Origin: Tubulanus polymorphus
Lineage: Eukaryota > Animalia > Nemertea
Direction of reading: 5' to 3'
NCBI RefSeq assembly: GCF_964204645.1
Contig: NC_134033.1
Span: 8,378,655-8,442,654, forward strand
Length of the DNA stretch: 64,000 nt
Each line of letters begins with the position of its first letter. The stretch's first letter is position 1. Shown here one piece after another: positions 19,198 through 61,757 of the stretch. The translations under genes and the position numbers were made by a program. Under the pieces are notes generated by a model that was not told where the DNA came from, did no database searches, and saw nothing but the letters and a program-made list of their open reading frames with translations.

Positions 19198-19426
19198 TTA
19201 TTATATAAATCTTTTACTAAAATTGATTTCATTTATATGATATTCATTTATATGATATTCATATATATGGAAGTACGAGAGTAATTAGATAATATCTTTG
19301 ATTCTAGCTAGGAATGATTTGTTGTTCTCACTGTGTACTTGAGTAATAGGAAAAGTAGGCTTTCATACCAGAGTACGAGAGTACGAGACACCACTCATCA
19401 CCACAAGTAATTTTTTTTCCTCATAA

Positions 19427-39746: not shown

Positions 39747-42700
39747 TAACCATAAGGTAATGTTTTTATACCATCATCTAAAATATGCCTTTTATCATCA
39801 AATGGATTCAAACTAGTTTTTTCAACTTCATTAATGTACATCTCGTGATCTTGTGATCTTAAACAATTCATTTTGTGTTTCATTACAATTGAGTTATATA
39901 AACACTTTATATAATCTTGAAATTCTATATGTTTATCAACCACATGTTTTGTTATTCCTTTTAACTTTTTAGCTTCATGATCTTTTGTTCTATAACTATA
40001 CAATTTACTTCTTATCCCGACAAATTCAATCATTTCATCACCCCCTAATTCATCTTTAAATTTACCAGGAATCTTTTCATTATCATTGCTAAATAGTTCA
40101 TGATCTTTAGGATAATTGCTAAAATCGAAATGATGTTTTAATGTTTTTAAGTCTTTTGTTATGTCATTTGTCTTGATTTTTAGTATGTAGGCGTCAGTAT
40201 TTTTGGCTATTAATGGAAATCCACAGTTAAATGTACCATGTTCAGTTGATAAATCATAAACATAATCTGTTGGGTTATATATTTCAAATAAATCTTTAAC
40301 TTCTTCTGTTAACTCATTTTCTACATGGCTTAAATTAAAACAATTTGGTTTAGATTTAATCAATCCAATATTCATATTAAAACCTAATGAATTGCATAAT
40401 ATATTTAATCCTGATATAGCAACTTTTCCTTTTTGAGCTAAAGATATAGTTTTGCGGTTTTTGAAACTTTTAGTACCATCTGCTGCGTAGAATCCAATGA
40501 AGAACCATTTTCTTAAATTATTTTTTGCATTTAATACATAATCTGGAACTATCTTTTCTTTAGTTGAAGTATTACTTTTCACTATTGCATGAATATAGAA
40601 TTCGTCATTATATTTTATAGCAAAATCTTTAGGATTATTCACATGTATTCTATAACATTGCGATGATTTCATAACATCTATGATTTTAAATGTTTTATGT
40701 GAATAAACTTCTTCACAGAATTTCTTTATTCTTTCTAATAATTTCAAATCTTGATTGCATAAATACCAACAATATTGAGTGTGATAAAGATAATTATACA
40801 CACCTGCTGAACCATCACCCATGAAAAATCCTTTGATAAAATATTCTTTTTCTTCTAATGTTTCGGGTTCTATATTATAAATATTATCAATAATTTCATC
40901 GAATGACATATGATTCATTCTTTGGAAAAATCTTTTATGTAATAATTCATCTCCAATTTTTATATCAGTTGGTTTTATTTCATCGCCATTTCGTTTAATT
41001 AAACTATGATCTTCTGTAACATCTACAAACCCTAATTTAGTTCTAACTCTATAGATTTTCTTATTTGTTTTATGCCTAATAATATTCTTTAATTTTTTCC
41101 ATCCATTTCTTGTCCAAACATCCATTAAGCCATTTATTTGTATTAATTCTTTTTCACCATATGAAATATAACATTCATTTTGTTTTGGAATTATTTCTGA
41201 AATTCTTCTTATCAATATTTTATCATTACATTTTAATAATATTGGGGTGTCAGCTGTTACAGAATCAAAATATAATATTTCAATATGCTTTTCCCCAAAA
41301 AGTGGTTGTAAAACATTATAATAAAAATCATACATTAATAATTTTGATACTTCTAAAACAGTTGAACCAATGAATATAGGTTTATTAAATTTCATTGACG
41401 TTCTTTTTAATTTAACTGCTGTTAAATAATCTTCAAATCTTTTATTTCCCAAATGTCTAGGACTTGATTGTAAATGTCTTAATCTTTCAGAATTATTTAC
41501 TAATTCAATATCATTTCTATTTCTAATATTTTCACATGTTTTACCATAAAAACTATTATTCATTAATTTAAAGAAATCTTTTTCAAAATCTGTTTTTGAT
41601 ATGGTTCTCTGTTGAGTATTAAAATCTATATATTTTTCTAACCACTTCGATTGATTAAATTCAATATATCTATGTACTTTCTTTAATTTCATTCCTTGTT
41701 TTAGATAAAATTTTAACATTCTATAATGAACAATGTAATTGTATTTATTATTTTGAGTAAGTATTAATTTTTCTGTAAAATTATGATCTTTCGGTTTTAT
41801 TTTCTTCTTTCTTCTGGTATTCACTTAAATAACTATCATCTACGACTAAATGTTCTGGGCAATAAGGTAAGTTTCTTGTTTTAAACTTTATATTTTCAGG
41901 ATATTCTAAATCAACTACAAAGAAATAACCAATTGGTGCTTCATCTTTTAAACTCGCAATTGCGCTTTCCCAATCAGTTTTATCACCATTTTCAACTTCT
42001 GTTAATATAAAATTTTTATATGGTTGAGGTTGCATCATTGCCCAGCCATATAAATTATTGGCGTCAATATATAATAATTTATATTCATCATTTGCTTTAA
42101 AATATCTATCTCCCATAACACCACTAATTCCACCTCTAATTGATTTTTCAAATTATAAAACAATATCTATATTTGTTAACAAATCCATTTTTGTATCTGT
42201 AAATTTTAAACCACATTGCCAGGTTAAACCAGGACTAGAGTAGCAATAGCAGGGATCAACATTAAAATGATTCAAATTGACTTCTCTAAATTTTTCAAAT
42301 ATATCGGCTAATATCATAACATCTGATTTTAAGTAAAGATCAACTAATTCACCATGATTTTTAAAATTGAAATGATTCCATATATTCAATGTTTTATGAA
42401 AAACTTCATCTTTCACGTACTCATTTTTTAATTGATCATAAAATTGTTCTTTCATTAATTTTGTTTCTTTGAAATCATCATGCGTTTTATAAAATGAGTA
42501 AGGTATTGCGCCTTTATTTCTCAATAATTTAAAATCTTGTTCATTTGGATAATAATATCGAGTTATTATAAAATCATTATCAACTAAACTTTTTGATAAA
42601 TTATCTAATGAACTTGCTAGAAATCTATAAGAATCTAAAAATCTAATGCAACCAAATTGAAATGAAATATAATTTTCAGATGTTTTAGCTAATAGTTTAA

Positions 42701-43613
42701 AATCATATTTTCTTACATTTACACCATTCATAGCATTATATTCTTCTATTTCTTGATTAATTGCGCCCGATATTCCCGATAATTGTTTTATAAATAGATG
42801 GGCATCATAGCCTGATAAATCATGAAATAATATTGGAACGAAATTTACTTTTTTTAGCTTGTAAATTACAATCTTCATGAGCAGCTCCATGATATTTTGA
42901 ATTTAAATGATCATGATCTCTAACTTTTTTATCAAATGAATAAAAACGTTTTTCACAATAACAACAATGGGTTGCATAATTAAAATCAATTTCATCTTCT
43001 TTTGTCATAACTATTCTTTTATTTTTGTTTAATAATTCTGCAAAATCACTTTCTAATTCAATTATTTTGTTACAAAAATTATTAACTACATCTTCACCTC
43101 TAAAAGAAATATATTGACTTTCATATAATTCAGGATAATTTGATTTTATGTAAATTCCATAAGCAGCAGCTCTTTGATGAACTTTTTTAATTGTATTTAT
43201 AATTGGCGGGTCTTGAATTATATCTTCATTTAGTTCATTTCCTTTATCCATTGATTTAATAATTGCTTTTTGTTGTATATTTCTTTTCTATCTTGATTAG
43301 TTAATTCTTTATTCAACGATTCAAAATCCCCATAAATTACAAATGGAACAATATTTTTAAATTTACGATTAGTAAATCTCAATTTATAATCTTTTTCTGT
43401 TGGCATTATTAATTTACAAAAATCTTTATTATCACATAATTCTTCATGTTTTAATAATGTATTCTCAGTCATTAATTTAGATAAACATTTTCAACATAGA
43501 TAAATTTTATTATGGTGATCGCTTTCTGTTCTAAAGAATAAATCAATTTGTTTTAACCACATATAATGTTCATTTTCATCTTTTTTTTAAATATAACAAA
43601 TCTATAGCATTTT
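39743..43613 (-). pseudogene. Element A pPolB, 3' part (exonuclease, EndoVII/HNH-like insert, palm) containing an intein
   Basis: YGDFES, CCYC...VRDHDHL...GAAH..CNL, HDLSGYDAH, FLDSYRF, YLKSDV, YIDANNLYG.AM, KLMNNSFYGK, YFD[intein]TDA, PGKFKDE and KKLKGI. Confidence 0.93.
40199..41263 (-). mobile_element. Intein (355 aa) with LAGLIDADG homing endonuclease in element A pPolB, reading frame intact
   Basis: Block A SVTADTP, block B DVTEDH, LAGLIDADG helices FIKGFFMGDG and FFIGFYAADG, block F YVYDLST, block G IAKN/T. Splits YFD|TDA. Confidence 0.93.
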
Positions 43614-43698
43614 AGTAATTAGAAGATGGCGTTTTCATACCAGAGTACTAGAGTACTAGACACCACTCATCACCACAAGTAATTTTTTTTCCTAATAA

Positions 43699-46600
43699 AT
43701 GGGGGAGAATGAACACCAGCCAGAAAACAATAATGTTAATGAAAATCAATATCATTGTCCATATTGTAAAAAATACATTAATAAATCTAATAAATCTCAT
43801 CATGAAAAATCTGCAAATCATATAAAAAATATAATAGATTTTAAAACTCCAGAAAATTCCAATGAAAGAAAAGAACGATTAGAAAATATGAATGTGGATG
43901 AAATAAAATGTGAAGTTTGTAATGAATTTATAGTAAAAAGGAATTATAAAAGACATATCAAATCACAAAAACACCATCAAAATTTGAGTAATGATATTTT
44001 AGGAATAGATTATTTCGATGATAAACCTCAACAAGTAAAAAAACCAACTTCAAAAACTAAATCCATTTCAAATAAACCTTACATGGAAAATGTTAGAAAT
44101 TATATTGATTCACTAGAAATAAAAGATACAATTGAAATTTTAGAAACATTACATTCTAAAATTGGTCCTGCGGCTATTATATTTAGATTCTTTAAAGGAA
44201 CAACAATAGAAGATTATAGTAAATTTAATGAAATAATAGAAAAAATACTAGTTTTGATAACAGATGTTGAATATCCAAAAATTAATATCTCTGGGTAAGT
44301 AAGTTTTATAAAGTCAGAAGATAAAATGGATTATAGTATTCAAACACTCTCTGAAGAAATAATTTCAAAAACGCAAATAAAAGAGAAGTTAGAAAAAATA
44401 TTTAATGAATTTAAACGTCATATTGAAGAGAGATATTTAAAGGGTTCTGGTTTAACACTGAATGGAATTATATTTTTAGATTTAAATGTTTATAATACAA
44501 AAAGGAATAAAACATCAAAAAGTAAAACAATGTTTAAAAATGACTCAAACTTTACAACAGAAAAGGATATTAAAGCATCAAGTTATATTAAATTACCATT
44601 TACAACAAAAGCAGTAATAAATGTTCAAAATGAAGATAATAAATGTTTTCTATGGTCAATTATTAGTTGCTTACACCCAACAGAAGATATTACGCATAGT
44701 TTTAGAATAACAAATTACCGGAAATATGAAACATTAAATAAAATTGATCAATATCCAGTAACTATAAAAATGATACCCAAAATAGAAAAAATTAATAAGT
44801 TAAGAATAAATGTATTCGAATTAATGCAATTACCAAAGACAAAAGGTGAAAATATTAAAGATTATACATTGGAAGCTTTATATTTAACAGAATATTATGA
44901 TGATGAAAATGCTATAGATTTGTTATATTACAAAAAAGATGAATATGAACATTATATGTGGTTAAAACAAATTGATTTATTCTTTAGAACAGAAAGTGAT
45001 TTTAACAGTCATAAAATCTATCTATGTAGAAAATGTTTATCTAAATTTAGAACTGAGAATGCGTTACTAAAACATAAAGAATTATGTGATAATAAAGATT
45101 TTTGCAAATTAATAATGCCAACAGAAAAAGATTATAAATTGAAATTTACTACTCATAAATTTAAAAATATTGTTCCATTTGTAATTTATGGGGATTTTGA
45201 ATCGTTGAATAAAGAATTAACTGATCAAGATAGAAAAGAAATATATAACAAAAAGCAATTATTAAAATCAATGGATAAAGGAAATGAATTAAATGAAGAC
45301 ACAACACAAGACCCGCCAATTATAAATACAATTAAAAAAGTTCATCAAAGAGCTGCTGCATATGGAATTTATATAAAATCAAATTATCCCGAATTATATG
45401 AAAGTCAATATATTTCTTTTAGAGGTGAAGATGTAGTTAATGATTTTTGTAACAAAATGATTGAATTAGAAAGTGATTTTGCAAAATTATTAAACAAAAA
45501 TAAAAGAATATTTATGACAAAAGAAGATGAAATTGATTTTAAGTATGCAACTCATTGTTGTTATTGTGAAAAACGTTTTTATTCATTTGATAAAAAAGTT
45601 AGAGATCATGATCATTTAAATTAAAAAATATCGTGGAGCTGCTCATGAAGATTGTAATTTACATGCTAAAAAAGTAAATTTCGTACCAATATTATTTCAT
45701 AATTTATCAGGTTATGATACCCATCTATTTATAAAACAATTATCAAGGAAATTGGGCACAATTAATCAAGAAATAGAAGAATATAATGCTATGAATGGTG
45801 TAAATGTAAGAAAATATGATTTTAAACTATTAGCTAAAACATCTGAGAATTATATTTCATTTCAATTTGGTTGCATTAGATTTTTAGATTCTTATAGATT
45901 TCTAGCAAGTTCATTAGATAATTTATCAAAAAGTTTAGTTGATAATGATTTTATAATAACTCGATATTATTATCCAAATGACCAAGATTTTAAATTATTG
46001 AGATATAAAGGTGCAATTCCTTATTCATTTTATAAAACACACAATGATTTTAATGTAACAGAATTATTAAAAGATCAATTTTATGATCAATTAAAAGAGG
46101 AGTATGTGAAAGACGAAGTGTTTAATAGAACATTAAATATTTAGAACCATTTTAAGATGAAAAATCATGGGGAATTAGTTGATTTATATTTAAAATCAGA
46201 TGTTATGATATTGGCTGACATATTTGAAAAATTTAGAGAAGTTAATTTGAATCATTTTAATGTTGATCCTTGTTATTGCTACTCTAGTCCTGGTTTAACC
46301 TGGCAATGTGGTTTAAAATATACAAATGTAGAATTAGATTTATTAAAAGAACCAGATATGGTTTTATTATTTGAAAAATCATTTAGAGGTGGAATTAGTG
46401 GTGTTATGGGAGATAGATATTTTAAAGCAAATGATGAATATAAATTATTATATATTGACGCCAATAATTTATATGGTTGGGCAATGATGCAACCTCAACC
46501 ATATAAAAATTTTATATTAACAGAAGTTGAAAATGATGATAAAACTAATTGGGAAAGCGCAATTATGAGTTTAGAAGATGAAGCGCCAATTGGTTATTTC

Positions 46601-48767
46601 TTTGTAGTTGATTTAGAATATCCCGAAAATATAAAGTTTAAAACAAGAAACTTACCTTATTGCCCAGAACATTTAACCGTAGATGATAGTTATTTAAGTG
46701 AATACCAGAAGAAAATAAAACCGAAAGATCATGTTTTTACAGAAAAATTAATACTTACTCAAAATAATAAATACAATTACATTGTTCATTATAGAATGTT
46801 AAAATTTTATCTAAAACAAGGAATGAAATTAAAGAAAGTACATAGATATATTGAATTTAATCAATCGAAGTGGTTAGAAAAATATATAGATTTTAATACT
46901 CAACAGAGAACCATATCAAAAACAGATTTTGAAAAAGATTTCTTCAAATTAATGAACAATAGTTTTTATGGTAAAACATGTGAAAATATTAGAAATAGAA
47001 ATGATATTGAATTAGTAAATAATTCTGAAAGATTAAGACATTTACAATCAAGTCCTAGACATTTAGGAAATAAAAGATTTGAAGATTATTTAACAGCAGT
47101 TAAATTAAAAAGAACGTCAATGAAATTTGATAAACCTATATTCATTGGTTCAACTGTTTTAGAAGTATCAAAATTATTAATGTATGATTTTTATTATAAT
47201 GTTTTACAACCACTTTTTGGGGAAAAGCATATTGAAATATTATATTTTGATTCTGTAACAGCTGACACCCCAATATTATTAAAATGTAATGATAAAATAT
47301 TGATAAGAAGAATTTCAGAAATAATTCCAAAACAAAATGAATGTTATATTTCATATGGTGAAAAAGAATTAATACAAATAAATGGCTTAATGGATGTTTG
47401 GACAAGAAATGGATGGAAAAAATTAAAGAATATTATTAGGCATAAAACAAATAAGAAAATCTATAGAGTTAGAACTAAATTAGGGTTTGTAGATGTTACA
47501 GAAGACCATAGTTTAATTAAACGAAATGGTGATGAAATAAAACCACCTGATATAAAAATTGGAGATGAATTATTACATAAAAGATTTTTCCAAAGAATGA
47601 ATCATATGTCATTTGATGAAATAATTGATAATATTTATAACATAGAACCCGAAACATTAGAAGAAAAAGAATATTTTATCAAAGGATTTTTCATGGGTGA
47701 TGGTTCAGCAGGCGTGTATAATTATGTTTGGGGTAATAAATATTGTTGGTATTCATGCAATCAAGACTTAAAATTATTAGAAAGAATTAAGAAATTCTGT
47801 GAAGAAGTTTATTCACATAAAACATTCAAAATCATAGATGTTATGAAATCATCGCAATGTTATAGAATACATGTGAATAATCCTAAAGATTTTGCTATAA
47901 AATATAATGATGAATTCTATATTCATGCAATAGTGAAAAGTAATACTTCAACAAAAGAAAAGATAGTACCAGATTATGTATTAAATGCAAAAAATAATTT
48001 AAGAAAGTGGTTCTTCATTGGATTCTATGCCGCAGATGGCACTAAAAAATTTACAAAGGATAAAAAGATAACATTTGCACAGAAAGGAAAAGTATCAGGA
48101 TTAAATATATTATGCAGTTCATTAGGATTTAATATGAATATAGAATTAATTAAATCTAAACCAATTTGTTTTAATATAAGGCATGTAGAAAAAGAATTAA
48201 CAGAAGAAGTTAAAGATTTATTTGAAATATATAACCCAACAGATTATGTTTATGATTTATCAACAGATGATGGAACATTCAATTCTGGGTTCCCATCAAT
48301 CCAAAAAAAATACCGACAGTTACATACTAAAAATCAAGACAAATGACATAACAAAAGACTTAAAAACATTAAAACATCATTTTGATTTTAGCAATTATCC
48401 CAAAGATCATGAACTATTTAGCAATGATAATAAAAAGATTCCTGGTAAGTTTAAAGATGAATTAGGGGGTGATGAAATGATTGAATTTGTTGGGATAAGA
48501 AGTAAAATGTATAGTTACAGAACAAAAGATCATGAAGCTAAAAAGTTAAAAGGAATAACAAAATATGTGGTTGATAAACATATAGAATTTCAAGATTATA
48601 TAAAGTGTTTATATAACTCAATTGTAATGAAACATAAAATGAATTGTTTAAGATCAGAAGATCACGAGATGTACATTAATGAAGTTGAAAAAACTAGTTT
48701 GAATCCATTTGATGATAAAAGACATATTTCAGATGATGGTATAAAAACATTACCTTATGGCCATTAA
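43699..48767 (+). pseudogene. Element B pPolB (N-terminal zinc fingers, EndoVII/HNH insert, intein)
   Basis: Colinear ORFs 43699-44298, 44326-45624, 45752-46144, 46157-48346 and 48222-48767. Nonsense codons at 44296 and 46142; frameshifts near 45622 and 48303-48310. Confidence 0.93.
47252..48311 (+). mobile_element. Intein with LAGLIDADG endonuclease in element B pPolB
   Basis: YFD|SVTADTP ... KN|TDS with the same blocks as in A. One extra A in an A8 run just before the terminal Asn. Confidence 0.92.
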
Positions 48768-50073
48768 AACATAAAATCAATATCATCATACTCGAAATCA
48801 CTATTGGCTTCTTCATTTTCATTTAATTGTTCTTGTATAATTTGTTTAGGTTCTTCTTCCATTTCATTTTTCTCATTTAAATAAAGTTTTATCTTGTTCC
48901 ACATTTCATCTCGCTCTCTTTGTTTCTTTTTGTTTGTTAATTCGTCAAATGGAATTATAATATCTATGTTTGAATAATTTACAATCTGATTTAAAAAGAA
49001 TTCATAATTAATTGAATCTGTTATTCTATTTTCCAAATGATACATTAATATTTGTTTGAATATTTTTTTTATATTTTCCATATCTTCTTCTGTTAATTTA
49101 GGTTTTTCATAATAATCGTTAAATAATAAATATAAATACATTTTCTTTTGTTTTGTGTTAAATTTTGACGGAATAATTGTTTTTATAATATCTTTTTTAG
49201 TTATTTCACCATTTTTTTCTATTATTTTCATTTTTTCAAGCCATTGCATATATTCTGGTGTATGATCTTCTATAGAAAATATTTTAAAAATTTCATCTAG
49301 ATAATTTAATTTTGGATCTATGAGAAAATTTCTAGTTTTTTCTTCACCCCATAAATTCTTTTGCCATCCACAATCAACACAAAATAACACAGTACCTTCT
49401 TGTCTTAAGGTCGCGTAATTACATTGTGGACATTTTCGTTTATAATCTATTGGTAATAGATCTTTTCTTACGCCTTCTTTATGTTTTATTGTTCTATTAT
49501 GTAGATTTGAATTACTTGTTGTAATAATCAATTTACAATATTTACAATAATATGTTTTTCTTGTTAATTCATTATATTTTTTTTTCTAACTTTTCAACTG
49601 TTTCTTTATCTGGTAACGTTTTCTCATATTTTATTTTTTCTAATAAACTATTTTTTCTTTCATTGAATTCAGTTTCAAATTTATTAGAAATTTTATCTAT
49701 ATGTAATTTACGAAATTGATGATTCTCCCAATCTTCTATATTTTCAGGGCTATATTTTACTCGACAAGGCTCGCAGAAATGATCTTTTATATTATCCTTA
49801 TCATAGAATAAGAAAGGTCTTTTCCAAATACCTTCAGGTTCAACTTCAGCAGAATTACTATTACTTTCATTACTATCAACATTAGCCGTTGCACCATTAA
49901 TTTTACACTTCTCTGAATGTTTTTTAACATAATTTCTTGAGAATAATTTATTACATTTTGGACAGTTTAGTTTAGGGGGTTTATAATTTTCATCATGTTT
50001 TTTTCATATGTCGAGCCATATTACTTTTTCTTAGAAGTTCACCACAAATTTCACATGCTATCGTCTCATCCAT
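48764..50073 (-). pseudogene. Element B zinc finger / VLTF3-like fusion gene
   Basis: TAAATG start at 50073. ELTRKTYYCKYCKLIITT reads through into ORF 48764-49531 (CPQC...CVDC, KIFKQILMYHLEN, SINYEFFLNQI). Upstream frameshifts lie in T runs. Confidence 0.72.
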
Positions 50074-50131
50074 TTATTAGGGAAAAAAATTACTTGTGGT
50101 GATGAGTGGTAATTTTTTTATGTTATAAATA

Positions 50132-50886
50132 ATGGTAGAATTAAAAGAATACAGAAAATTTGTTGATTCTAGAAAACTTACAAATTATAAATCACATAAT
50201 TTACTAGTTCAATTAGATAGAGAATTTAAGAATTGTGAAGATTTAAAATTAGTTAATATAAGTTTATGTAACTCATTTTACAATATATCGGATAAAAGTT
50301 TTGATCATAGATTGTTTATGATTCATGATAAAAATATGGATAAATGGTATAATCTATTTCTAAGAACAGGATTATATAATTTAGAAACATTATCTCAAGA
50401 AATTAATAGAAGAGCTCGGCTAAAAGTGGGTGAATTTGTTGGGTTTAACATTAAATTTAATAAAATTGAAAGTACTAATAAAATAAGAATAAAGTTAACT
50501 AATGAACAATATAAATTCATAGTAAGAAAACCATTAGCTAAAATGCTAGGAGTTAATCCAAATAAAGTTTATTCAAATGTTGATACTACACCAAATATAA
50601 TACCTTTTACGCACTTCTATATTTATTGTAATTTAATTGATCCTACAAAAACATTCGAAGCAACTAAAGATACAATTTGTAATTCTGGTTTATTAAATAT
50701 TTTACTATTAAAAATGTCAAACAATTTGGAACTGAAATAAATTATAATTTAACTGAATGTGATTTCAAACCATGTATTCCACATTTTAATAATTTTAGAT
50801 TAGAAATAAGAAATCATAATGGTTATTTAATTGATTTGAATAACTTTCCTGTGATATATGAATTAGTTATAAGATGTAGAGAGTAA
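50132..50886 (+). pseudogene. Element B minor capsid (penton-like) protein, frameshift near 50712
   Basis: Homolog of A 37610-38365. Confidence 0.75.
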
Positions 50887-50902
50887 TTTTTTCATTATAT
50901 AA

Positions 50903-51243
50903 ATGAATATAACTGTTGGACCGAGTATATGTTTTGGGTTTGATTTTAAACGTGAGAAAGAAATGAAATTTAACATTAATGATGTAATTACACATATCAA
51001 AAATATTGCATTTTCTAATAAAACAACATTTAAGTATGAAAAAACAATAGATAAAGAAACTTTTAACGTAGAAAAGATTACTAATTTAATTAGAGAATCT
51101 TTAAGATTTTATGAATTAGATGAAGATTTTATCATCGATGATATCAAAAAATAATAATTGAAATATATACAAATGAAACTAGTAATGAAATAAATGTTGA
51201 ATTAATCATCACTAAGATAACTAAATATTTTGAAGATAGTAAT
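50903..51243 (+). pseudogene. Element B hypothetical protein
   Basis: ORF 50903-51154 plus a frameshifted tail; homolog in A. Confidence 0.6.
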
Positions 51244-51258
51244 TTTTTTGATAAATAA

Positions 51259-51479
51259 ATGAGTGATAATAAGTGGATAATAACTGGATTATATAATGGA
51301 GCATTACTATCAGTTGGAACTGTTGGTTATTCAATGGTATTAAAAAAGTATTCAAACTGGGAAGTGTTAATGATGATAGATTTGATATCAATGATATTTT
51401 AAAATTAACATTAGCATTTACTTTATCTAATTTAACTATTGATTATTTAGAAAAACAAAAATATATTCCTCCCATATAA
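51259..51479 (+). pseudogene. Element B small hydrophobic protein
   Basis: TAAATG start; homolog of A 36988-37207; frameshifted. Confidence 0.6.
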
Positions 51480-51503
51480 ATGCGTAATTATTTTACTAAA
51501 TAA

Positions 51504-51921
51504 ATGGCTTGTGCAATTATAACTATTATAGGATCGGCAATTGTTAACGCTTTAGCATTTACTGGTGGCGGTTATTTATTTAAGCATATTGATAAAAATA
51601 GTTCATTAGGAAAACAAAGAAGACATAATTTAGCATTAGAGAAATAAAGCAGCAGAAGAATACAGAGAAAAACGACAAAACTATATGGATTATATTAACA
51701 AGGAATTATATGATCAGAAGATTTCACATAGAGATTTTCAATCAGTTGATGATGCAATGAGTTTATATAACGCAGTAACCAATAAAGAAAAATTACATCT
51801 ATACAAACCAAAATTATCAGATTATTATACCCCAAGTAAAGAACAACAGAAATATGAAATAATTTGGATTTTAGGTGGAACAGTTATTGTTATATTTGTA
51901 GCATATAAATTTACTAATTAG
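51504..51921 (+). pseudogene. Element B conserved small protein (IVNALAFTGG)
   Basis: TAAATG start, small deletion near 51645, C-terminal TM segment. Confidence 0.7.
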
Positions 51922-51940
51922 TAATTTTTTTTCTAAATAA

Positions 51941-52375
51941 ATGGAAGATAAAGTTGATAGTATTGATATTATTCCTCATGATTTAAATAAAACTAAATTG
52001 AAAATATATTTAGAAAAACAAATATTAGAATTTGAAAGTGACTTAAAGATAAAAAAGAAAAAATATTTAAAAAGTAAAATTATATATTATTTGATTATAA
52101 GTGGTTCGGTTACAATTAGTTCTGTAATAACATTTCTAGCAATATTCAGTCCATTAACACCTTTAGCTATTTCAATTGGTGTATTAGGATTAAGTTCAAG
52201 TGTTTTAACTGGTATAAGTTCAAAATTAAATATAAAAAGTAATAAAGAGAAAATTAAAACTAATATAAAAGAAATTAATAAATTAAAGAATACACTAGAT
52301 TATATAATAAGTTTAAATGGTCATATAACAGTTGAAGAACAAGATAAATTATTAAAAGAATTAATAAATTATTAA
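51941..52375 (+). CDS. Element B two-TM hypothetical protein
   Basis: Intact 144 aa with a hydrophobic hairpin. Confidence 0.75.
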   Translation: MEDKVDSIDIIPHDLNKTKLKIYLEKQILEFESDLKIKKKKYLKSKIIYYLIISGSVTISSVITFLAIFSPLTPLAISIGVLGLSSSVLTGISSKLNIKSNKEKIKTNIKEINKLKNTLDYIISLNGHITVEEQDKLLKELINY

Positions 52376-52391
52376 TTTTTTAATTATATAA

Positions 52392-53777
52392 ATGGTAGAT
52401 AGTTTTCCAAAAGCTTTCCAATATAATAAATCAATTAAATATAATATTCCAGCAATAGATTTTAATAAAGATATTACATATAGAAATGAAGTTTTAGATT
52501 CATTAACTAATTTAGAAATTTATGTTACTGAAACTAATAATTTTAATGCAAAGATGGAAAATATATTTCATGTATATTTAATTAATTTTAAAAAATTGAA
52601 AGATGAAAAACAATGGTTATTAAAATCTAATATGAAGTATTGGCAGAACCAATTAAATTTTGCTGTTTATTGTGCAACAACAGGATGTGGAATTAGTTGG
52701 AATGATCATTTGAATAATTCTGAATATAAATTAATTCAAAGTTTATTTAGATTTCATACATACTTTCAAATCAGAATAATATTAAATGAATTAGAGTGCG
52801 CTTTACCAGGATCTAGGTATTTTAAAGAATTAGATAATAATATTGATTTATCAAAGTTTTATAAAATTTGTAATGAATTTAATATAGATATAAATAATTC
52901 TGATTTTAGAACAAAAATTGGAACAATAAGATCACTTCCTTGCCCTAAAAAGATTGCAGAATATTGTGCACTTCCCATACCATCTAATAGTTTGTATAAT
53001 ATCTATAGTAATAAATTAGGTTATGGTAAAATACAAACTAAGGATTTAGAATCATTAAATTTCAATAAATTACCGACATTTTATGATAATTTAAAACAAG
53101 AAAACAATAATGGTTGGGTTTATTTCATTTTAGAAAATAATGAAGGTTTTACAAAATCAGGTATACAAAGAATAAATCAATCTATTAGAACTTATTTGAT
53201 ATGTATTTTAGGTGCGCAAGTTGAAACAAGATCCCCAATAATTGGAAATTTAAATACATCATTTGATACACAAAAATTCAAAGTATTATTTGAAGATTCT
53301 ATTCATAATGATAAAAATAGATCGATTCCAGAAAACATTGTAAGATATCAAAATCATTTAGATAAATCTCATGTAAGACTAAATTATTGTATGGGCCCTA
53401 ATCTATTAATTATTTCTAATGATTTAGTACTAAAGATGGGAAACATAATTGGTTACAATAATCTAATTAAAACTGCAACAATAAATAATTCATTTGGATT
53501 AAATGATATAAATAAAAAGATTATTACCGCTCCAAAATTAATGGAAGGTGAAAAAAATAAAAAACACATGCAATCAACAGAAACTAAAACTAAAAATATT
53601 AAATTGCATAATGATTCTAAAATAAAAGATTACAATACATCAGAAAATATAAAAACTGATAATATTCAACATGATATAATTAAAACTAATAATGATAATA
53701 AATTCCATGAAAATACTAAATTAGCTTTAACTTGTACAGGAATTGTTATAGGAGGAATATTATATTTTAAATTTTAA
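52392..53777 (+). CDS. Element B conserved Polinton protein with C-terminal membrane anchor
   Basis: Intact 461 aa: WQNQLNFAVYCATTGCGIS, FRFHTYFQ.R.IL..L...LP, RINQSIRTY..CILGAQ. Confidence 0.8.
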   Translation: MVDSFPKAFQYNKSIKYNIPAIDFNKDITYRNEVLDSLTNLEIYVTETNNFNAKMENIFHVYLINFKKLKDEKQWLLKSNMKYWQNQLNFAVYCATTGCGISWNDHLNNSEYKLIQSLFRFHTYFQIRIILNELECALPGSRYFKELDNNIDLSKFYKICNEFNIDINNSDFRTKIGTIRSLPCPKKIAEYCALPIPSNSLYNIYSNKLGYGKIQTKDLESLNFNKLPTFYDNLKQENNNGWVYFILENNEGFTKSGIQRINQSIRTYLICILGAQVETRSPIIGNLNTSFDTQKFKVLFEDSIHNDKNRSIPENIVRYQNHLDKSHVRLNYCMGPNLLIISNDLVLKMGNIIGYNNLIKTATINNSFGLNDINKKIITAPKLMEGEKNKKHMQSTETKTKNIKLHNDSKIKDYNTSENIKTDNIQHDIIKTNNDNKFHENTKLALTCTGIVIGGILYFKF

Positions 53778-53793
53778 TTTTTTTATTATATAA

Positions 53794-55223
53794 ATGGATG
53801 TAGAAGGTGGAGAAGATATTGGAATGGACCCTTTAGATGAACCTGGTATAACTGATGAACAACAACCTGATTTTAGTGAAACAAGTTTTAATGTCGGTAA
53901 TGAGTCAGGATATAATAATAATTTGAATATGCCTGATTATATTGAAAATGCAGAATCACAATTAAATCCTGAAAATTTAGACCCAGATTTAGTAAAACAA
54001 GATTTAGATAATTTAAACAAAATACCTAAATTAGAAGATTTAATTGAAAAATCTAAACTTAACATAAATGATGAAGACGTTGGACTTTTAGCAGATCAAT
54101 TAAAATTTTTAGATAATGGTAAATGTTATTATCGTTTGAAAGGTGATTATTATATTGATATCACTTATAAAAATAATGAAAATAAAATATTATCAGAATC
54201 AACTTTAGAAAAATTAAAACCAGATAGAATTAAAAGAATAAGTAATAGTAATGAAATAACTGATGTTACACAAAATGAAAGAGATGATAATATAGACGTA
54301 TTTAAACAAAAAATTAATGAATTATTTGAAATAATCAAAAAGAAATCAGAGACAGAAACAACTTCTGAACAGAATATAACTTCCAAAACTAGTAAACTTA
54401 AATCAAATAAAGTTTCAATTGAAAAACTTTTACCGAATGGATTAATTGATGCAACAGATCAAGAATTAGAAGATTTAGATATATTTTCTGATAAAGCAAT
54501 TAGAGAGATTATTAGTATAAGAAATGAAGCTGATAAAATTGCGCATGATAAAAGTATAAGAGATTTAAAAATTAGAACTTTAGAAAAAGAATTAACTGAT
54601 AAAAATAAAAAAATAGAACAATCAAAATTAGATAGAGATAATAAAGTTATTGAAGAAATCGAATTTAAAAAAAGAAATGCGTGTTTAGAAAAAGAAAAGA
54701 TGATTTAGAATATAACATAGAATTACAAAAAGAAGAAATTAAATTATTATTAAAATCATATGATTATAATATTAATAGATTAAAAGTTATTTTTAAAGAT
54801 TTATTGATAAAACCAAATTCTGAAATATCATTGAAAGATAGAATAAAGTTATTATTTAAATTAGAAGGAATAACAATTCTTTCAATTCTAACAGCTGTAA
54901 CTATGTTATTTACAACAATTGGTTTAGCTATATCAAATTCATTAAAATCTACTCCTACTCCAAATAAACCAGATAAACGCCAAGATAATAATTCTATACA
55001 AGATAAAGTTAAGGATGGTTTAAAGAAATTAGCAAAATATTTATGGGAACTATCTAAAAAATCTGCCGCAGCTTTACCAGGAATTATTGCATCAATTGTT
55101 GGTTTTATATTGAAATCTGCTGGGAATATTCTTAACTTTGCTGCTGAACATATTATTTTATTTTTAATAACAGTTGTAAGTGCTATTATTTTTGGGTTAG
55201 TGAATATGATTGAAAATAAATAA
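53794..55223 (+). pseudogene. Element B coiled-coil / hydrophobic C-terminus protein, one frameshift
   Basis: ORFs 53794-54708 and 54681-55223 overlap at an A-rich frameshift. Confidence 0.72.
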
Positions 55224-55243
55224 TTAATTTTTTTGTTAAATAA

Positions 55244-56465
55244 ATGAGTGGGAGTTATATAAGTCCTTCTAAGATTTCTAGAATATCTAATGCTATTAAA
55301 GCAGAAAGATCACATCATATAATTACTCATAATCCTTCAAATATTAATCCCGATGAAACTTTATATGATAGAATTCCTAGATTGACACAAAATACTTTTT
55401 ATGTTCCAAATAGTATTTATTTATCAGCTGATATAAAAGTAATTGGTCATGATAATAATTATGTTGTTGATAATGTTGGGAGATATTTGATTAAAAAATT
55501 AACTCTAAAGATTGGTCCAGAAACAGTTTTCTCATTAGATGATTATAATTTATTTATGCATTATAAAGATTTATGGTTAACTAAAGAAAATAGAAATAAT
55601 ATGATATCTCAGGGTATTCAATCGGAAAACCATAATAAATTAAGATCAGGAGCTAATGACGCAATAGTAACTCGTGCCACAGGTAATTTGATTAAAAAGA
55701 TTTATGGAAGCAAATATAAAATTCCATTAGACTTTATATAAATATGTAATTCAAGAAGATATTATATTTGAGATAACATTTGCTCCTGTAAATGAAATTG
55801 TATTATCTAGCGTTGTTAAAGATATGGGTTATAAATTATCAAATATATGTTTAGAATATGACACAGTAACTAATGAAAATATTGCTAGCACAATTCAAAC
55901 TCGATACAATCAAGGATTTTCATTATTATATGATTATATTGATAAATTTAAAACTGTAACTATTAATGCAAATGATGAAATAATTAATGAGAATATTAAC
56001 TTCCCAAGAAGATCTATTAAAGGTATATTAATATTTTTTACCATTGCAACATATTCTAATGGCGCAATAACGGTTGATAATTATTATAATCCTGAAATAA
56101 CAAAAGTAGAAATAACTATCGAAGGAATAGCAAATAAAATATTTTGTCAAGGAATGAGAATGATAGATCAGTGGCCAGAAATTAGAGAACATTTTATGAA
56201 TGAAAAAGTAAAATCATTTGAAAATTGTAATATTAATCAAATTGATTATTATACCGGCAATAAATATGCATTATGGTTAGATTTTAGAACAACAGAGGAT
56301 AATTCATAACATGGTTCTGGAAAAAAACTACAGAACACAAAAGATGGAATACAATTATTCATGACAAAGAATAAAGGAATCAAAAATTTCAAAATGCACA
56401 TTTATATTATATCTGACGCGCAATTAAATATTGTAAATTCACAATTAGATAGTATTCAATATTAG
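55244..56465 (+). pseudogene. Element B major capsid protein
   Basis: Same MCP motifs as A. A deletion near 55738 removes ELINNNAP; stop at 56307-56309. Confidence 0.8.
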
Positions 56466-56495
56466 AAATATAAAGTTAAAATCAACGATATATAA

Positions 56496-57623
56496 ATGGG
56501 TGGTAAAAAAACTCCTAATACTAAAGAACAATATTTAAGAAATTTATATTGCAACCCTGAGAGTTCGGTTGCTTATTCTTCTACTAAAAATATATGGCGT
56601 CAAGTAAAACAAGATAAATTAGATAAGATAATCACACAAAATTTAGTTAAATATAAAGATATAAATGAATTTATGTTAGAACAACCAACATACACAACAC
56701 ATAAAAAAATTTTTAGAAAATATAAAACTCGTAAAACTATGGTAAGTTATGGAGATCAACAGTGGCAAGGAGATTTAATTGATATGAAAAATGTTAAGAA
56801 AGATAATGATGATTATTGGTGGTTATTGAATATAATTGATATTTTTAGTCGTTATGTATGGAGTTTCCCACTTTATATAAAAGATGCTGTACAAACATCA
56901 AATGTTTTAAGAAAATTTCTTTCGGATGATAAACTAAAACCAGAAAAAATACAATTTGATGATGGAAAAGAATTTGATAATTCACTTGTCCATGAACTCT
57001 TAGATAATCATAATATTAAATATTTTTCAACAAAATCGGATAAAAAAGCAGCAGTTATTGAACGATTTAATAGAACATTAAGAACAAGAATGTGGAAATA
57101 TTTTACAGCAAATAATACTTTTAAATGGATTGATGTTTTACCGAAATTGATAGAAGGATATAATAATTCTTATCATTCTTCTATTGGAATGAAACCTATT
57201 GATGCTAGAAAACCTGAAAATGCTGAAATTGTTTGGAATAATTTATATGGAGCATTTCTTGTAGATGATTTTGGTGAACCTAAATTTAAAGTTGGTCAAA
57301 ATGTTAGAATTTCTAAGTATAAAAAGATATTTGACAAGGGATACGATCGAAATTTTACTAGAGAAATATATAAAATAAAAAAGGTTATAACAACAAAACC
57401 ATATGTCTATAAATTAGAAGATTTAGATGGTGAAGAAGTTGATGGCTACTTCTACGAAGAAGAATTAAGTTTAACTACAGAAAATCTAGAACAAGAATAT
57501 AAAATTGAAAAAGTATTAAAAACAAAAACTATTAAAAGAAAAAAATATTCTTTAGTAAAATGGGTTGGATGGCCGGATAAATTCAATGAATGGATATTAT
57601 CAAGTAAAATTAAAAATATATAA
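56496..57623 (+). CDS. Element B rve integrase with chromodomain, intact
   Basis: 375 aa; DDE triad (GDL, DDGKEF, ERFNRT) and chromodomain YKIEKVL...YSLVKWVGW...NEW. Confidence 0.93.
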   Translation: MGGKKTPNTKEQYLRNLYCNPESSVAYSSTKNIWRQVKQDKLDKIITQNLVKYKDINEFMLEQPTYTTHKKIFRKYKTRKTMVSYGDQQWQGDLIDMKNVKKDNDDYWWLLNIIDIFSRYVWSFPLYIKDAVQTSNVLRKFLSDDKLKPEKIQFDDGKEFDNSLVHELLDNHNIKYFSTKSDKKAAVIERFNRTLRTRMWKYFTANNTFKWIDVLPKLIEGYNNSYHSSIGMKPIDARKPENAEIVWNNLYGAFLVDDFGEPKFKVGQNVRISKYKKIFDKGYDRNFTREIYKIKKVITTKPYVYKLEDLDGEEVDGYFYEEELSLTTENLEQEYKIEKVLKTKTIKRKKYSLVKWVGWPDKFNEWILSSKIKNI

Positions 57624-58230
57624 ATGAATAAGGAATTATTCATATTTGAGCCTCATAGTATGTTAATTTCTGGTGTAACAAATTGTGGAAACTTATTTTA
57701 TATTAAATTTATTAGAAACTGTTTATAAAAACTATTTTGATAATATAGTATTATTTTGTCCAACGTATGAATTTAATCAAACTTATGATAGAAATATTAC
57801 TAGAAATAATAAATTTATTATATTAGATCCTAAAACAGTTAAAGAAAATTTAGATAATTGTATTAAAATAGCAATTGATATTTATAAAGGATCAAATACA
57901 TTATTCATTATAGATGATTGTGCTAATATACATGATTCAAAAGTTAGAGAGAGTGAGTTATGCTACTTAGCTTTTTCTGGCAGACATTTTGGGATAACAA
58001 CTTTGGTTTTAAATCAAAAATATAATTCAATTGTTAAAGACTTTAGAGAAAACATTAGATTTCTAGTTTTATTCTACAATAAAGATAGAAAATCGATGAA
58101 AAATGCACTTGAGGAAAATGATATTATTCCACATGATTTACATAATGAATATATGGATAAGTTGAAAAATATTAAAAGATCAAAATTACTATTTAGATTA
58201 CAACACCCATTTAAATATGAATTTATTTAA
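57624..58230 (+). pseudogene. Element B packaging ATPase, 1-nt deletion in Walker A
   Basis: tgtggaaacttat vs A tgtggaaaaacttat shows a shorter A run. The rest is colinear with A 22006-22614. Confidence 0.85.
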
Positions 58231-58590
58231 ATTCAACTGGCTTGTTAATCTAGTTGAATTCTAGTTATTGGTAGTTGTAACAAAAATCAACTAGATTTAA
58301 CAATATTTTAACTAGCTTGTTAATCTAGTTGAATTCTAGTTACATTCTAGTTGAATTCTAGTTGTTAGTAGTTGGAACAAAAATCAACTAGATTTAACAA
58401 TATTTTAACTAGCTTGTTAATCTAGTTTAATTCTAGTTACATTCTAGTTGAATTCTAGTTGTTAGTAGTTGGAACAAAAATCAACTAGATTTAACAAGAA
58501 ATAAACACAAACAACAATATTTCAACTAGCTTGTTAATCTAGTTGAATTCTAGTTACATTCTAGTTGAATTCTAGTTGCAACATCACAAC
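58230..58590. repeat. Element B CTAG-rich tandem array
   Basis: About 87-bp units (starts near 58310, 58397, 58524) built from ttctagttgaa/ttctagttaca 11-mers. Confidence 0.88.
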
Positions 58591-58609
58591 TAATTTTTTT
58601 GTTATATAA

Positions 58610-59215
58610 ATGGTAGGTGAAAAGAAAATAAAATCTAAAAATGGTGATGTTCCAATTGAAAAAACTTTAGATGATTTAGGAATAACAGAAACAAAATAAA
58701 CTCCAGATGATGGTGTTATAAATAATGTTACAACAAATAATAATTATGAATATTATCTTTATTGTAAACATCAATTAGAAATATTAATAGCATCTGGAAA
58801 ATGTAAAAATTTTGTCGGTAAAAATTTAATTTATAATGAATTAGATACAATGAAATCAGATGAAATTATTAGATTATTTAAGATTTATGAAGCCGCGAGA
58901 ACAGCTAGAATTAATGATGCGATATCAGAAAATGTAGTAAAAGGTTATAGTAAATTATGTAATTATATACTACCAATTGAAGATGAAAATAGATTATATT
59001 CCGATTTAAAAAATGATTATTTAGTTATGACTGAATTAAATAAATGGATTGGATATTTATCATTTCAATTAGGTGGATTTATGACATTATTATCAACTGG
59101 AGTTATAACATTATCAAATATTGAAAGTAAAAATATTTCTATAATAAATGAACAAGGCGGAAGAAGTGAAGGAATTAACTGTGAACAAAAAACCGAGATC
59201 ACAGAAACAAATTGA
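58610..59215 (+). pseudogene. Element B conserved hypothetical protein with an early stop
   Basis: Homolog of A 21110-21700; TTA>TAA near 58697. Confidence 0.72.
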
Positions 59216-59513
59216 ATGGTCTCGGCAATTAGGAATTAAATCACAAGAATATAAAAAAGCTGTAAAAGAAAAGATAAGTGATAAAAATGTTAATAGAAAT
59301 AGTGAAAATATTGTTATTTCTACTCCTTCTTATGATAGAATATTTGATAAATGTCTATATTTTACAGTTGGATTTGTAATTGTATTCATTTTGATTGGGT
59401 GTAATTGGTATAAGAAATCAAATAAAATTCATGATATTAATAATTCTGAAACAACTGCTATCAAAAATGAAAATAATTCTGAAATTCCAAAATTGACGAT
59501 AAAAATGGATTAA
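59148..59513 (+). CDS. Element B single-TM protein
   Basis: Intact 121 aa, TAAATG start, LYFTVGFVIVFILIG segment. Confidence 0.7.
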   Translation: MNKAEEVKELTVNKKPRSQKQIEWSRQLGIKSQEYKKAVKEKISDKNVNRNSENIVISTPSYDRIFDKCLYFTVGFVIVFILIGCNWYKKSNKIHDINNSETTAIKNENNSEIPKLTIKMD

Positions 59514-59664
59514 TATTTTAGAAAAAAAGCAAAATAAAATATTTTTTTTTAATTAATTGAATATCTCACTACTTTTGTCTATCTATGCGGAGCAATTAAA
59601 TTGTCCAGATAAGTCATTTCGGATTCTAGATATTCATTATTTTTATTAATTTATTTTTTTAAAT

Positions 59665-59990
59665 TTAATCAACAATTTCTAAATCATGATGGCCATCTTC
59701 ATTTTTTCCATGATAGATTATTTTAAATCCTTCTAAATCTTTTAATTCCTCTGTACTCAATGAAGCCCATTTATCAGGTAAAAATACTTTGAATTCTCGC
59801 GATGTACTAACATTACAGTAGCTTAAATTAGCTGATACTTTCTCTCCATATTTAGTTTTTATCTTTTCTAATTTCAATATTTTATGTTAAATTTCTTTTG
59901 TAACATCAACTAACTTTTTTATTTCAAATTGTTTTTTGCTGGTTTAATTCTGTTATTTATTGTTGCTAAGAATGCTTTTCTATCTCCCAT
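59665..59990 (-). CDS. Element B small terminal protein (KTKYG..VFLP), split by a -1 frameshift
   Basis: Same organisation as A 19427-19752, including the A AAA AAC site. Confidence 0.55.
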
Positions 59991-60249
59991 TTATAAGGAA
60001 AACAAATTACTTGTGGTGATGAGTGGGGATTACTTCCCCCCTGTATATAACGAACACACTATTAACCGTTCTCATCCAGTTCTCAGTAGAGACTCACCGT
60101 ATCGATCTATCCACGCGCAGATGTTGTTACGCGCACTCACTGTATACGTGTATCACAGAGCAATCGTCCGTTCTCACTAGAGCCTAGCTGTGATGAGTGG
60201 TGTCTAGTACTCTAGTACTCTGGTATGAAAACGCCATCTTCTAATTACT

Positions 60250-61460
60250 CATTTCCATCATCATAATATTCTGTTAAATATAAAGCTTCCAATGTATAAT
60301 CTTTAATATTTTCACCTTTTGTCTTTGGTAATTGCATTAATTCGAATACATTTATTTTTAAATTATTAACTTTTTCTATTTTAGGAATCATTTTTATAGT
60401 TACTGGATATTGATCAATTTTATATAATGTTTCATATTTCCGGTAATATGTTATTCTAAAACTATGTGTAATATCTTCTGTTGGATGTAAGCAACTAATA
60501 ATTGCCCACAGAAAACATTTATTATCTTCATTTTGAAGATTTATTACTGCTTTTGTTGTAAATGGTAATTTAATATAAGATGATGCTTTAATATCCTTTT
60601 CTGTTGTAAAATTTGAATCATTTTTAAACATTTCATTACTTTTTGATGTTTTATTTCTTTATGTATTAAAAACATTGAAATCTAAATATATAATTTCATT
60701 CAATGTTAAGCCAGAACCCTCAAAATATCTTTCTTCAATATGACGTTTAATTTCATTAAATATTTTTTCTAATTTCTCTTTTATTTGTGTTTTTGAAATT
60801 ATTTCTTCAGAGTGTATTTGAATATTATAATCCATTTTTTCTTCTGACTTTATAAAACTTACTTTCCCAGAGATACTAATTTTTGGATATTCAACATCTG
60901 TTATCAAATCTAGTATTTTTTCTATTATTTCATTAAATTTACTATAATCTTCTATTGTTGTTCCTTTAAAAAATCTTAATATAATAGCCGCAGTACCAAT
61001 TTTACTATGTAATGTTTCTAAAATTTCAATTGTATCTTTTATTTCTAGTGAATCAATATAATTTCTAACATTTTCCATGTAAGGTTTATTTGAAATGGAT
61101 TTAGTTTTTGAAGTTGTTTTTTTTTACTTTTTGAGGTTTATCATCGAAATAATCTTTTCCTAAAACATTATTACTCAAATTTTGGTGGTGTATTTGTGAT
61201 TCGAGATGTCTATTATAATTCCTTTTTACTATAAATTCATTACAAACTTCACATTTTATTTCATCCACATTCATATCATCTAATCGTTCTTTTCTTTCAT
61301 TGGAATTTTCTGGAGTTTCAAAATCTATAACATTTTTTATATGATTTGAAGATTTTTCATGTTTAGATTTATTAGATTTATCGATGTATTTTTTACAATA
61401 TGGACAATAATATTGATTTTTATTAACATTATTGTTTTCTGGCTGGTGTTCATTCTCCAT
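60250..61460 (-). pseudogene. Element A pPolB, 5' part (N-terminal zinc fingers)
   Basis: MENEHQPE...CPYC, CEVC, N.DNKCFLW.I...LHP. Colinear with B 43699-44910 and continues at 43613. Confidence 0.9.
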
Positions 61461-61545
61461 TTATAAGGAAAAATAATTACTTGTGGTGATGAGTGGTGTC
61501 TCGTACTCTCGTACTCTGGTATGAAAGCCTACTTTTCCTATTACT

Positions 61546-61757
61546 TACTTGTTTACTCTCCATTTATTATACAAATTTTTATTAAAATTGATTTCAGAAA
61601 TATCAAATTTCATAAATATAATATTCATGAATATACAATTTATAAATATTAGAGTAAGTGTATATATGTTGTTTCAGATTGAAGTTTGAAAGGTTGTGTG
61701 CGTAAAAAATAAAAATAAATTCGAACTTGCGAGAATTTATTTTTATTTTTTATGAGC
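61546..61757. mobile_element. Right-hand remnant of element C
   Basis: Continues the sequence interrupted at 19341 (paralogous to 19180-19230). Ends in aaattcgaacttgcgagaatttatttttatttttatgagc, matching D's terminal hairpin core at 12230-12272. Confidence 0.7.

Follow-up and report, generated by a model that had tools for sequence, protein, structure and literature searches.

A 64,000-nucleotide stretch of the genome of the nemertean Tubulanus polymorphus (NC_134033.1, positions 8,378,655 to 8,442,654; hereafter the window, numbered from its first base) contains a decayed Maverick/Polinton element, copy A, in which nearly every gene starts within a motif resembling the late promoter of poxviruses. 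We propose that the Polinton clade of copy A is transcribed by a pox-like cytoplasmic virus acting as its helper, a reading to which we give a probability of roughly 0.6. It draws on the architecture of the promoters and on a gene for a poxvirus-leaning VLTF3-like factor. Judged by sequence, the case made by these two is real and well controlled; the dependence on a helper we infer.

A pox-like promoter unit at Polinton gene starts

The hexamer TAAATG marks the start of 14 of the 15 genes of copy A and 13 of the 15 in its sister element, copy B, compared with 36 of 649 other ATGs, a background that is slightly too low because an ATG inside a reading frame cannot follow an in-phase TAA. These starts were hand-picked after the motif had been seen, and the independent tests are the automatic gene calls on other loci given below. 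The motif belongs to a larger unit, in which TAA at −16 to −14 (13, 14 and 14 of 14) is followed by a T-run at −13 to −7, a 6-nucleotide (nt) spacer and TAAAT(G). The fifteenth gene of copy A has the same T-run unit, but here three bases separate TAAAT from the ATG.

43680–43701, plus strand: example of the unit, TAA, T-run of seven, N6 and TAAAT(G), 22 nt; 12 such units stand at copy A gene starts

A T at −10 is found at 11 of 14 copy A starts versus 12 of 36 other TAAATG sequences, and six or more T between −14 and −8 at 9 of 14 versus 1 of 36. Scanned for independently of genes, with a motif derived from copy A, the bipartite unit occurs 28 times in the window, always inside Polinton DNA; copy A alone holds 14, where 200 shuffles gave a mean of 1.06 and a maximum of 5.

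We compared 24 metagenomic loci with related capsids (L001–L024; the decayed fragments L021–L024 are excluded from all counts). Automatic gene calls place TAAATG at 51 of 59 starts in L001–L014 and at 2 of 17 in the more distant Polinton loci L015–L020. Equally AT-rich control loci, 37 intein-bearing viral loci treated as giant-virus although some may not be, have it at 54 of 421 (13%). The original prediction of TAAATG starts on almost every gene holds for copy A. The motif stands at 113 of 224 starts in 38 poxvirus-type loci, a sample that mixes gene classes, and at 7 of 18 in one entomopoxvirus-type locus. Exactly two A separate the T from the ATG in 51 of 59 Polinton starts, whereas the giant-virus loci show a smooth spectrum of A-run lengths; the following base is G in 73% of cases in the Polinton clade, 70% in poxvirus loci and 29% in giant-virus loci. 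TAAATG is kept at 40–44% GC, at 3 of 4 starts in L006 and 2 of 3 in L007.

Divergent genes are particularly informative. In six of nine such pairs the ATGs lie 19–30 nt apart with TAAATG on both strands, and TAAATG is present at 16 of 18 divergent starts overall, which excludes a stop-start join as its origin. By the textbook spacing of RNA polymerase II core promoters and leaders, 19–30 nt would leave little room for two of each. In a capsid tree (L016 and L021–L024 excluded), the motif-bearing loci form one clade of 17 rows with support of 97/96, which also includes L012 (TAAATG at 0 of 2 starts) and L019 (1 of 2). Across lineages whose capsids differ by 25–50%, the unit is kept at nearly all starts despite changes in gene order.

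The poxvirus late promoter is described as a T-containing core, 5–7 bp, and TAAAT(G/A) covering the start (PMC5294985); a T ten bases upstream is conserved (PMC11980589), and TAAATG is annotated at many genes of salmon gill poxvirus (PMC4542343). The Polinton starts show the same features in sequence: TAAAT(G/A) over the start, a T-rich core 5–7 nt upstream and a T near −10. The units differ from those of poxviruses in a stronger T-run, in the fixed TAA at −16 and in their presence on replication genes too.

Two side observations concern gene starts in other loci. In L018, a more distant relative outside the clade, TAAAAATG, preceded by a T-run, opens three genes and may be a variant initiator. 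L002 has an HNH-like gene (5568–6083) whose ATG lies 19 nt from a divergent integrase ATG, both within TAAATG.

A VLTF3-like gene that leans to poxviruses

The second line of evidence is a gene that we confirmed as VLTF3-like by remote homology, with a zinc ribbon and a helical VLTF3 domain.

48764–50073, minus strand: multi-zinc-finger and VLTF3/A2-like gene; first half frameshifted, last 273 codons open

A profile built from 14 poxvirus rows scored the Polinton VLTF3 at 64 bits, giant-virus VLTF3s at 34 or less and shuffled sequences at 7.6 or less. Conversely, the Polinton profile scored the 14 poxvirus rows at 38–55 bits and seven giant-virus rows at 1–26. By these scores the Polinton protein is closer to poxvirus A2 than to the sampled giant-virus VLTF3s; it aligns with A2 over about 190 residues, including zinc ribbon and helical domain, at about 23% identity, and differs in carrying extra N-terminal zinc fingers. 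A fold search, for which the alignment used in folding contained one poxvirus-type row, returned an unnamed 278-amino-acid (aa) protein, cowpox VLTF3 and entomopoxvirus VLTF3 ahead of other large-virus VLTF3s (E 4e-7), with B385R of African swine fever virus (ASFV) in 16th place. The VLTF3/A2L-like assignment of the original prediction is therefore sustained by profile and fold, though Pfam Pox_VLTF3 misses the gene. In the Atlas, VLTF3 clusters score 0.96, some of them made up mostly of Preplasmiviricota.

Searching 1.84 billion representative proteins with the VLTF3 query yielded five matches. Two were homologues within the family, one was a protein without placement and one a spurious terpene synthase; the fifth was a 226-aa poxvirus-type A2 with Pox_VLTF3 and A2L zinc-ribbon domains, the only one of the five with a VLTF3 family label (E 2.7e-4), which is 63% identical to a gene in L062. 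A word-index search with a piece of the gene retained 0 of 970 candidates, and scans of viral contigs with the integrase, the capsid, the VLTF3 alignment and P0047 found no relative. A Foldseek search of the PDB gave no VLTF3 match; the best solved match to the model of the helical domain was yeast TFIIB, and weak (Z 5.4, root-mean-square deviation 3.5, 93 residues).

VLTF3 has been published for a subgroup of Polintons (PMC11131425, which cites Krupovic and Koonin 2016), and a mimivirus-like VLTF is listed in MELD viruses (PMC8502044). The close relative L004 carries the same VLTF3 gene, likewise opened by TAAATG. Its back-to-back neighbour there is a deoxynucleoside kinase gene (10343–10981, minus strand; PF01712, 110 bits), which also starts with TAAATG.

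The pol-c intein records a different contact

The protein-primed family B DNA polymerase (pPolB) of the family carries an intein.

47252–48311, plus strand: pol-c intein of the LAGLIDADG type, in polymerase motif C; frameshift close to its end in copy A, open (355 aa) in copy B at 40199–41263, minus strand

The open copy B intein reads YFD/SVT...AKN/TDA, contains two LAGLIDADG motifs and scores over the TIGR01445 cut-off. Its first residue is Ser and its last Asn, a Thr follows it, and L006 has an empty allele that reads YMDTDA; it agrees with the earlier description of a giant-virus-type intein at the pol-c site. Among the matches listed (120 of 264), most are RNA-primed family B polymerases that carry their intein at this same position. 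A quick tree was built from 95 of the 101 rows extracted from those 120 matches. In it the six inteins of protein-primed polymerases form a clade (99) nested in a 17-row group (97) with 11 RNA-primed ones, of which one is encoded in a giant-virus bin (L026). By this tree the intein crossed once, early, between giant-virus and Polinton polymerases, in one direction or the other. The giant-virus inteins, of the Mimivirus type, share the site (YxD/S ... N/TD), the first Ser and the two LAGLIDADG motifs at 29–41% identity, and differ from those of copies A and B in sitting in RNA-primed rather than protein-primed polymerases.

The promoters, the VLTF3-like gene and the intein had originally been read as three traits pointing to a pox-like helper. 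The first two do point that way, but we rejected the intein as evidence for it, because its sisters sit in giant-virus polymerases. Its sequence relationships make it a separate sign of contact with large DNA viruses of the cytoplasm, and it is a further example of homing between RNA-primed and protein-primed polymerases. Inserted endonucleases in the pPolBs of Polintons have been mentioned as likely intein invasions (PMC11071308), and PMC12220804 describes GIY-YIG and HNH types, not the LAGLIDADG pol-c type.

The same intein family is found in type II topoisomerases at DxD/S (P0057, P0118, P0130, P0149, P0159, P0163, P0166, P0167 and P0169), eight of which form one clade in the tree. A pol-c intein belonging to this family is also present in P0132, which its source names as a Chloropicon primus DNA polymerase delta and whose gene may be an integrated viral gene.

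Proposed transcription by a pox-like helper and its alternatives

Among the open reading frames (ORFs) scanned there is no RNA polymerase or capping gene. If the clade does use a pox-like helper, element DNA would reach the cytoplasmic factory of an infected cell, and the helper's post-replicative machinery would start transcription in the AAA of TAAAT. Starting there would give mRNAs without a templated 5' leader and with a poly(A) head added by slippage, a mechanism described for vaccinia and for yeast linear elements (PMC6211774). All genes, including the polymerase, would be expressed together in a single late class, as Mavirus genes are; Mavirus and Sputnik each have one expression class, and Mavirus shares the late promoter of its helper (PMC6428243). 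The element's own VLTF3, with its added zinc fingers, may draw the helper polymerase to element promoters or compete with the helper's factor. The pPolB would copy the genome, the ATPase and capsid would package it, and the integrase would store it in the host germ line between infections. Polinton-like viruses (PLVs) have been reported in the occlusion bodies of entomopoxviruses (PMC11296320).

Several observations weigh against this reading. Within the promoter, T at −9 is present at 49 of 52 starts in the Polinton clade but at 47 of 94 in poxvirus loci and 22 of 42 in the giant-virus controls; upstream, the correlation with the poxvirus profile is modest (r 0.48, p 0.03, orthologous genes being non-independent); and the fixed TAA at −16 is without a stated poxvirus counterpart. 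The VLTF3-like gene has no direct match to Pfam Pox_VLTF3 up to E 1. In unrooted trees its rows stand on a long branch of their own that lies outside the poxviruses or is not resolved from them (poxvirus monophyly 69/24 and 86); the rows compared exclude asfarviruses, egoviruses, mriyaviruses and PLVs, though PLV-rich VLTF3 clusters score 0.96, and the last tree included 4 of 80 new giant-virus rows after dereplication. Between copies A and B, the C-terminal part of the gene has a ratio of non-synonymous to synonymous change (dN/dS) of 0.92 (5 synonymous, 23 non-synonymous), which makes it the least constrained of the nine segments compared. Mriyaviruses have retained VLTF3 although they lack an RNA polymerase, and they probably use the nucleus (PMC11253617). 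Coral polintovirus genes are transcribed in ordinary samples, in a study that did not examine promoters (PMC11131425). Finally, the nearest non-Polinton relatives of the intein sit in RNA-primed polymerases of giant-virus bins.

The alternative that survives best, though we find it improbable, is that the element is autonomous in the nucleus, where its own VLTF3 would bring the host's RNA polymerase II to the TAAATG unit without a helper. Copy A does encode a VLTF3 with a zinc ribbon and a cyclin-like, TFIIB-like fold, and no RNA polymerase among the ORFs scanned; the weak TFIIB match of the model and the mriyavirus precedent fit as well. However, the VLTF3 gene itself stands behind a TAAATG unit, so nothing would be expressed first, the close spacing of divergent ATGs would leave no room for two polymerase II core promoters with leaders, and motif and VLTF3 both lean to poxviruses.

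A little less probable still is a helper that is not a poxvirus proper: a cytoplasmic relative of the asfarvirus or egovirus kind, or an element of the linear-plasmid type whose RNA polymerase is pox-like. The position of the Polinton VLTF3 outside the sampled poxviruses would suit such a source, as would the TAAAN initiator with poly(A) leaders of yeast linear elements (PMC6211774), the genes that egoviruses gave to Parabasalia polintons (10.1101/2024.03.23.586382) and a fixed TAA at −16 that is unlike descriptions of vaccinia. Against asfarviruses stand the TATATA-type late promoters of ASFV (PMC5294985) and the rank of B385R, behind cowpox and entomopoxvirus, in the fold search.

We consider it very unlikely that TAAATG is a translation or gene-packing signal of an AT-rich genome, combining a stop-start join, an A-rich start context and an upstream poly(A) signal, with VLTF3 and intein as unrelated passengers. 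The element is about 23% GC, its integrase and ATPase genes are joined by TAA-ATG, the TAA at −16 is the upstream stop in three tandem pairs, AATAAA overlaps 24 of 56 starts, about half, and ORF callers favour a TAA/ATG junction. Yet equally AT-rich giant-virus loci use TAAATG at 13% of starts, terminal and divergent genes with no gene upstream still carry it, it persists at 40–44% GC, and the bipartite unit, far above its shuffled frequency in copy A, is found nowhere in the window outside Polinton DNA. Least likely of all is a relic, in which an ancestor parasitised a pox-like virus and the family is now a nuclear transposon: copies A and B are decayed and nested among other mobile DNA and their VLTF3 is weakly constrained, but the retention of the unit across diverged, reordered lineages requires ongoing selection.

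Beyond transcription by a pox-like helper, we offer a wider reading only tentatively and think it rather unlikely. The clade might be a widespread one in animals and consist of integrating virophages of pox-like viruses, whose germ-line copies wake on infection and whose VLTF3 hijacks or jams late transcription of the helper, an inherited antiviral defence; its presence would then mark, host by host, an unsampled pox-like lineage at or below the base of Poxviridae.

Relation to known elements

By gene content copy A fits the group 2 Mavericks/Polintons (Polintoviricetes, 'adintoviruses' and coral polintoviruses). It shares with them terminal inverted repeats (TIRs), a 6-bp target-site duplication (TSD), pPolB, an rve integrase, an A32-type ATPase and a double jelly-roll capsid, as well as a SLATT-like gene and the absence of a detected protease (10.64898/2026.06.19.733378); the adenovirus-type protease of group 1 Mavericks had no match in the copy A ORF pieces scanned. 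To this set copy A adds the pox-type late promoter unit, the zinc-finger-fused pox-leaning VLTF3 and the LAGLIDADG pol-c intein, none of which we found reported for group 2 Mavericks in a literature search. Nor did that search find a paper on TAAATG promoters in Polintons, with most subscription papers and all bioRxiv supplements out of reach; the word 'promoter' is absent from two 2026 preprints on PLV diversity.

Mavirus (Lavidaviridae), with its helper CroV, resembles copy A in its rve integrase, pPolB, chromosomal storage and placement of all genes behind a motif like the late promoter of a large virus (PMC6428243). Copy A differs in its animal host, its Polinton gene set without a detected protease and its TAAATG in place of TCTA, and helper dependence is here a deduction. 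Two features of virophages (Lavidaviridae) were not found in copy A: the protease had no match, and mavirus and Sputnik capsids were not top-ranked in the fold comparison below. The PLVs AHEV_PLV1/2, CBEV_PLV1 and Ca_PLV1, compared by their description in PMC11296320, have a cysteine protease and either carry a tyrosine recombinase or lack an integrase; these entomopoxvirus PLVs encode a protease and a PLA2-like protein and lack rve, whereas copy A has rve and no match to either of the other two. The main text of that paper contains no occurrence of promoter, TAAAT, VLTF3 or intein.

The 22-nt unit offers a cheap, sharp test and a sequence marker by which Polinton families could be sorted by helper. 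If the helper reading is true, the Mavirus model extends to animals, for whose Polintons no virions have been reported (10.64898/2026.06.19.733378), and integrated Polintons record pox-like viruses in invertebrates where none is known.

Anatomy, decay and setting of copy A

Copy A is bounded by perfect 60-bp TIRs beginning AGTAAT and a 6-bp TSD that matches at five of six positions (CATTTT/CATTTC). It lies nested, on the opposite strand, in the pPolB gene of copy B, to which it is about 93% identical.

43614–60249, plus strand: Maverick/Polinton copy A, 16,636 bp, decayed (TIR/TSD termini, gene comparison)
43614–43673, plus strand: left TIR, 60 bp, partner at 60190–60249, perfect match over 60 bp
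60190–60249, minus strand: right TIR of copy A, perfect match to the left TIR
43608–43613: left copy of the 6-bp TSD (right copy 60250–60255, one mismatch); target, pPolB gene of copy B
19342–61545, minus strand: sister copy B, host of copy A, also decayed; TIR about 91 bp, exact TSD TACTTG
28449–36677, minus strand: BEL/Pao long terminal repeat (LTR) retrotransposon inside copy B; 301-bp LTRs, Peptidase_A17, DUF1759, DUF5641
43699–48767, plus strand: pPolB with N-terminal zinc fingers, broken by stops and frameshifts; colinear with the intact relative P0053 (1,693 aa)
50132–50886, plus strand: penton candidate, one frameshift; Pfam DUF5901 at E 0.005, conserved in L004, L008 and L019
50903–51921, plus strand: three small conserved genes, two with hydrophobic segments, two frameshifted
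51941–52375, plus strand: SLATT-like two-helix membrane protein, intact; Pfam SLATT_fungal at E 0.004, under the cut-off
52392–53777, plus strand: conserved 461-aa protein, intact; 68% identical to the L004 homologue, without a family match
53794–55223, plus strand: conserved coiled-coil/membrane protein, frameshifted
55244–56465, plus strand: double jelly-roll major capsid protein, one frameshift and one stop
56496–57623, plus strand: rve integrase with chromodomain, intact, 375 aa; PF00665 at 37.2 bits, cut-off 32.6
57624–58230, plus strand: A32-type packaging ATPase, frameshifted in copy A, intact in copy B; PF04665 at 32.2 and 50.7 bits, over the cut-off
58249–58578: 97-bp tandem repeats in the sole long non-coding gap
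58610–59513, plus strand: two conserved genes (about 200 aa with one stop; 121 aa)
59665–59990, minus strand: small conserved terminal gene, broken; 72% identical to the L004 homologue

The capsid, penton, ATPase, integrase and pPolB genes listed in the original prediction were recovered for the most part: integrase, ATPase, double jelly-roll capsid and pPolB stand, while the single jelly-roll penton remains a candidate, for which later profile searches found nothing beyond the DUF5901 match. The pPolB assignment draws on PF03175 (62 bits) as well as colinearity, and relatives of this pPolB contain an endonuclease VII-like insert. A model of the relative P0001, 71% identical to the capsid piece of copy B (pTM 0.81), matched double jelly-roll capsids by Foldseek at E 3e-15, with mavirus and Sputnik capsids ranking below those of iridovirus and PBCV-1; capsid and penton profiles gave zero matches to PDB sequences. 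Neither the protease nor the PLA2 family had a match among the ORF pieces scanned, and the remaining space is filled by other genes. The terminal gene at 59665–59990 may be SSB-like.

Copy A is dead. Compared with intact relatives, pPolB, VLTF3, the penton candidate, the major capsid gene, the ATPase and five more genes are broken, and open frames remain in the integrase, the SLATT-like gene and the 461-aa gene. The earlier claim of a complete TIR/TSD-bounded element therefore holds for the termini, apart from one TSD mismatch, and, as to content, for the gene set only. With most genes broken copy A could not reactivate alone, and its candidacy as a provirus that reactivates on infection is ruled out. 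Over 2,016 codons in nine segments, dN/dS between copies A and B is 0.29, a sign of purifying selection and hence of family activity that preceded the decay of these two copies.

In one DNA run of the species, depth over Polinton DNA is 258–1,085 versus 42–69 in the five lowest bins, a baseline that is only indicative, as those bins may not be single-copy; the run covers most words of the stretch. Most reads over Polinton DNA are 90–95% alike. This indicates a family that is multi-copy in the host, of uncertain size. The placement next to a collagen gene did not hold up: collagen IV exons lie at about 970–4880, some 39 kb from copy A, whose immediate surroundings are the pPolB gene of copy B.

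The 97-bp repeats at 58249–58578 are rich in CTAG/AACTAG palindromes, are present in copy B too and are a possible origin or packaging signal. The TIR of copy B (19342–19432 and 61455–61545) contains a whole promoter unit, so that its two terminal genes share one promoter sequence. Copy B is itself inserted at the start of a gene in a third, older Polinton (14957–19341 and 61546–61700; about 70% identical) with its own TAAATG units at 19200 and 61566, making three nested Polintons, and a fourth starts near 63480. The nesting may reflect either a preference for sister elements as targets or a repeat graveyard. A short element at 9707–12317 with long inverted ends of the AGTAATAGGG type contains a 205-aa zinc-finger ORF behind a T-run/TAAATG start (10751) and 198-bp tandem repeats with TAAATG in each, and looks like a non-autonomous Polinton derivative.

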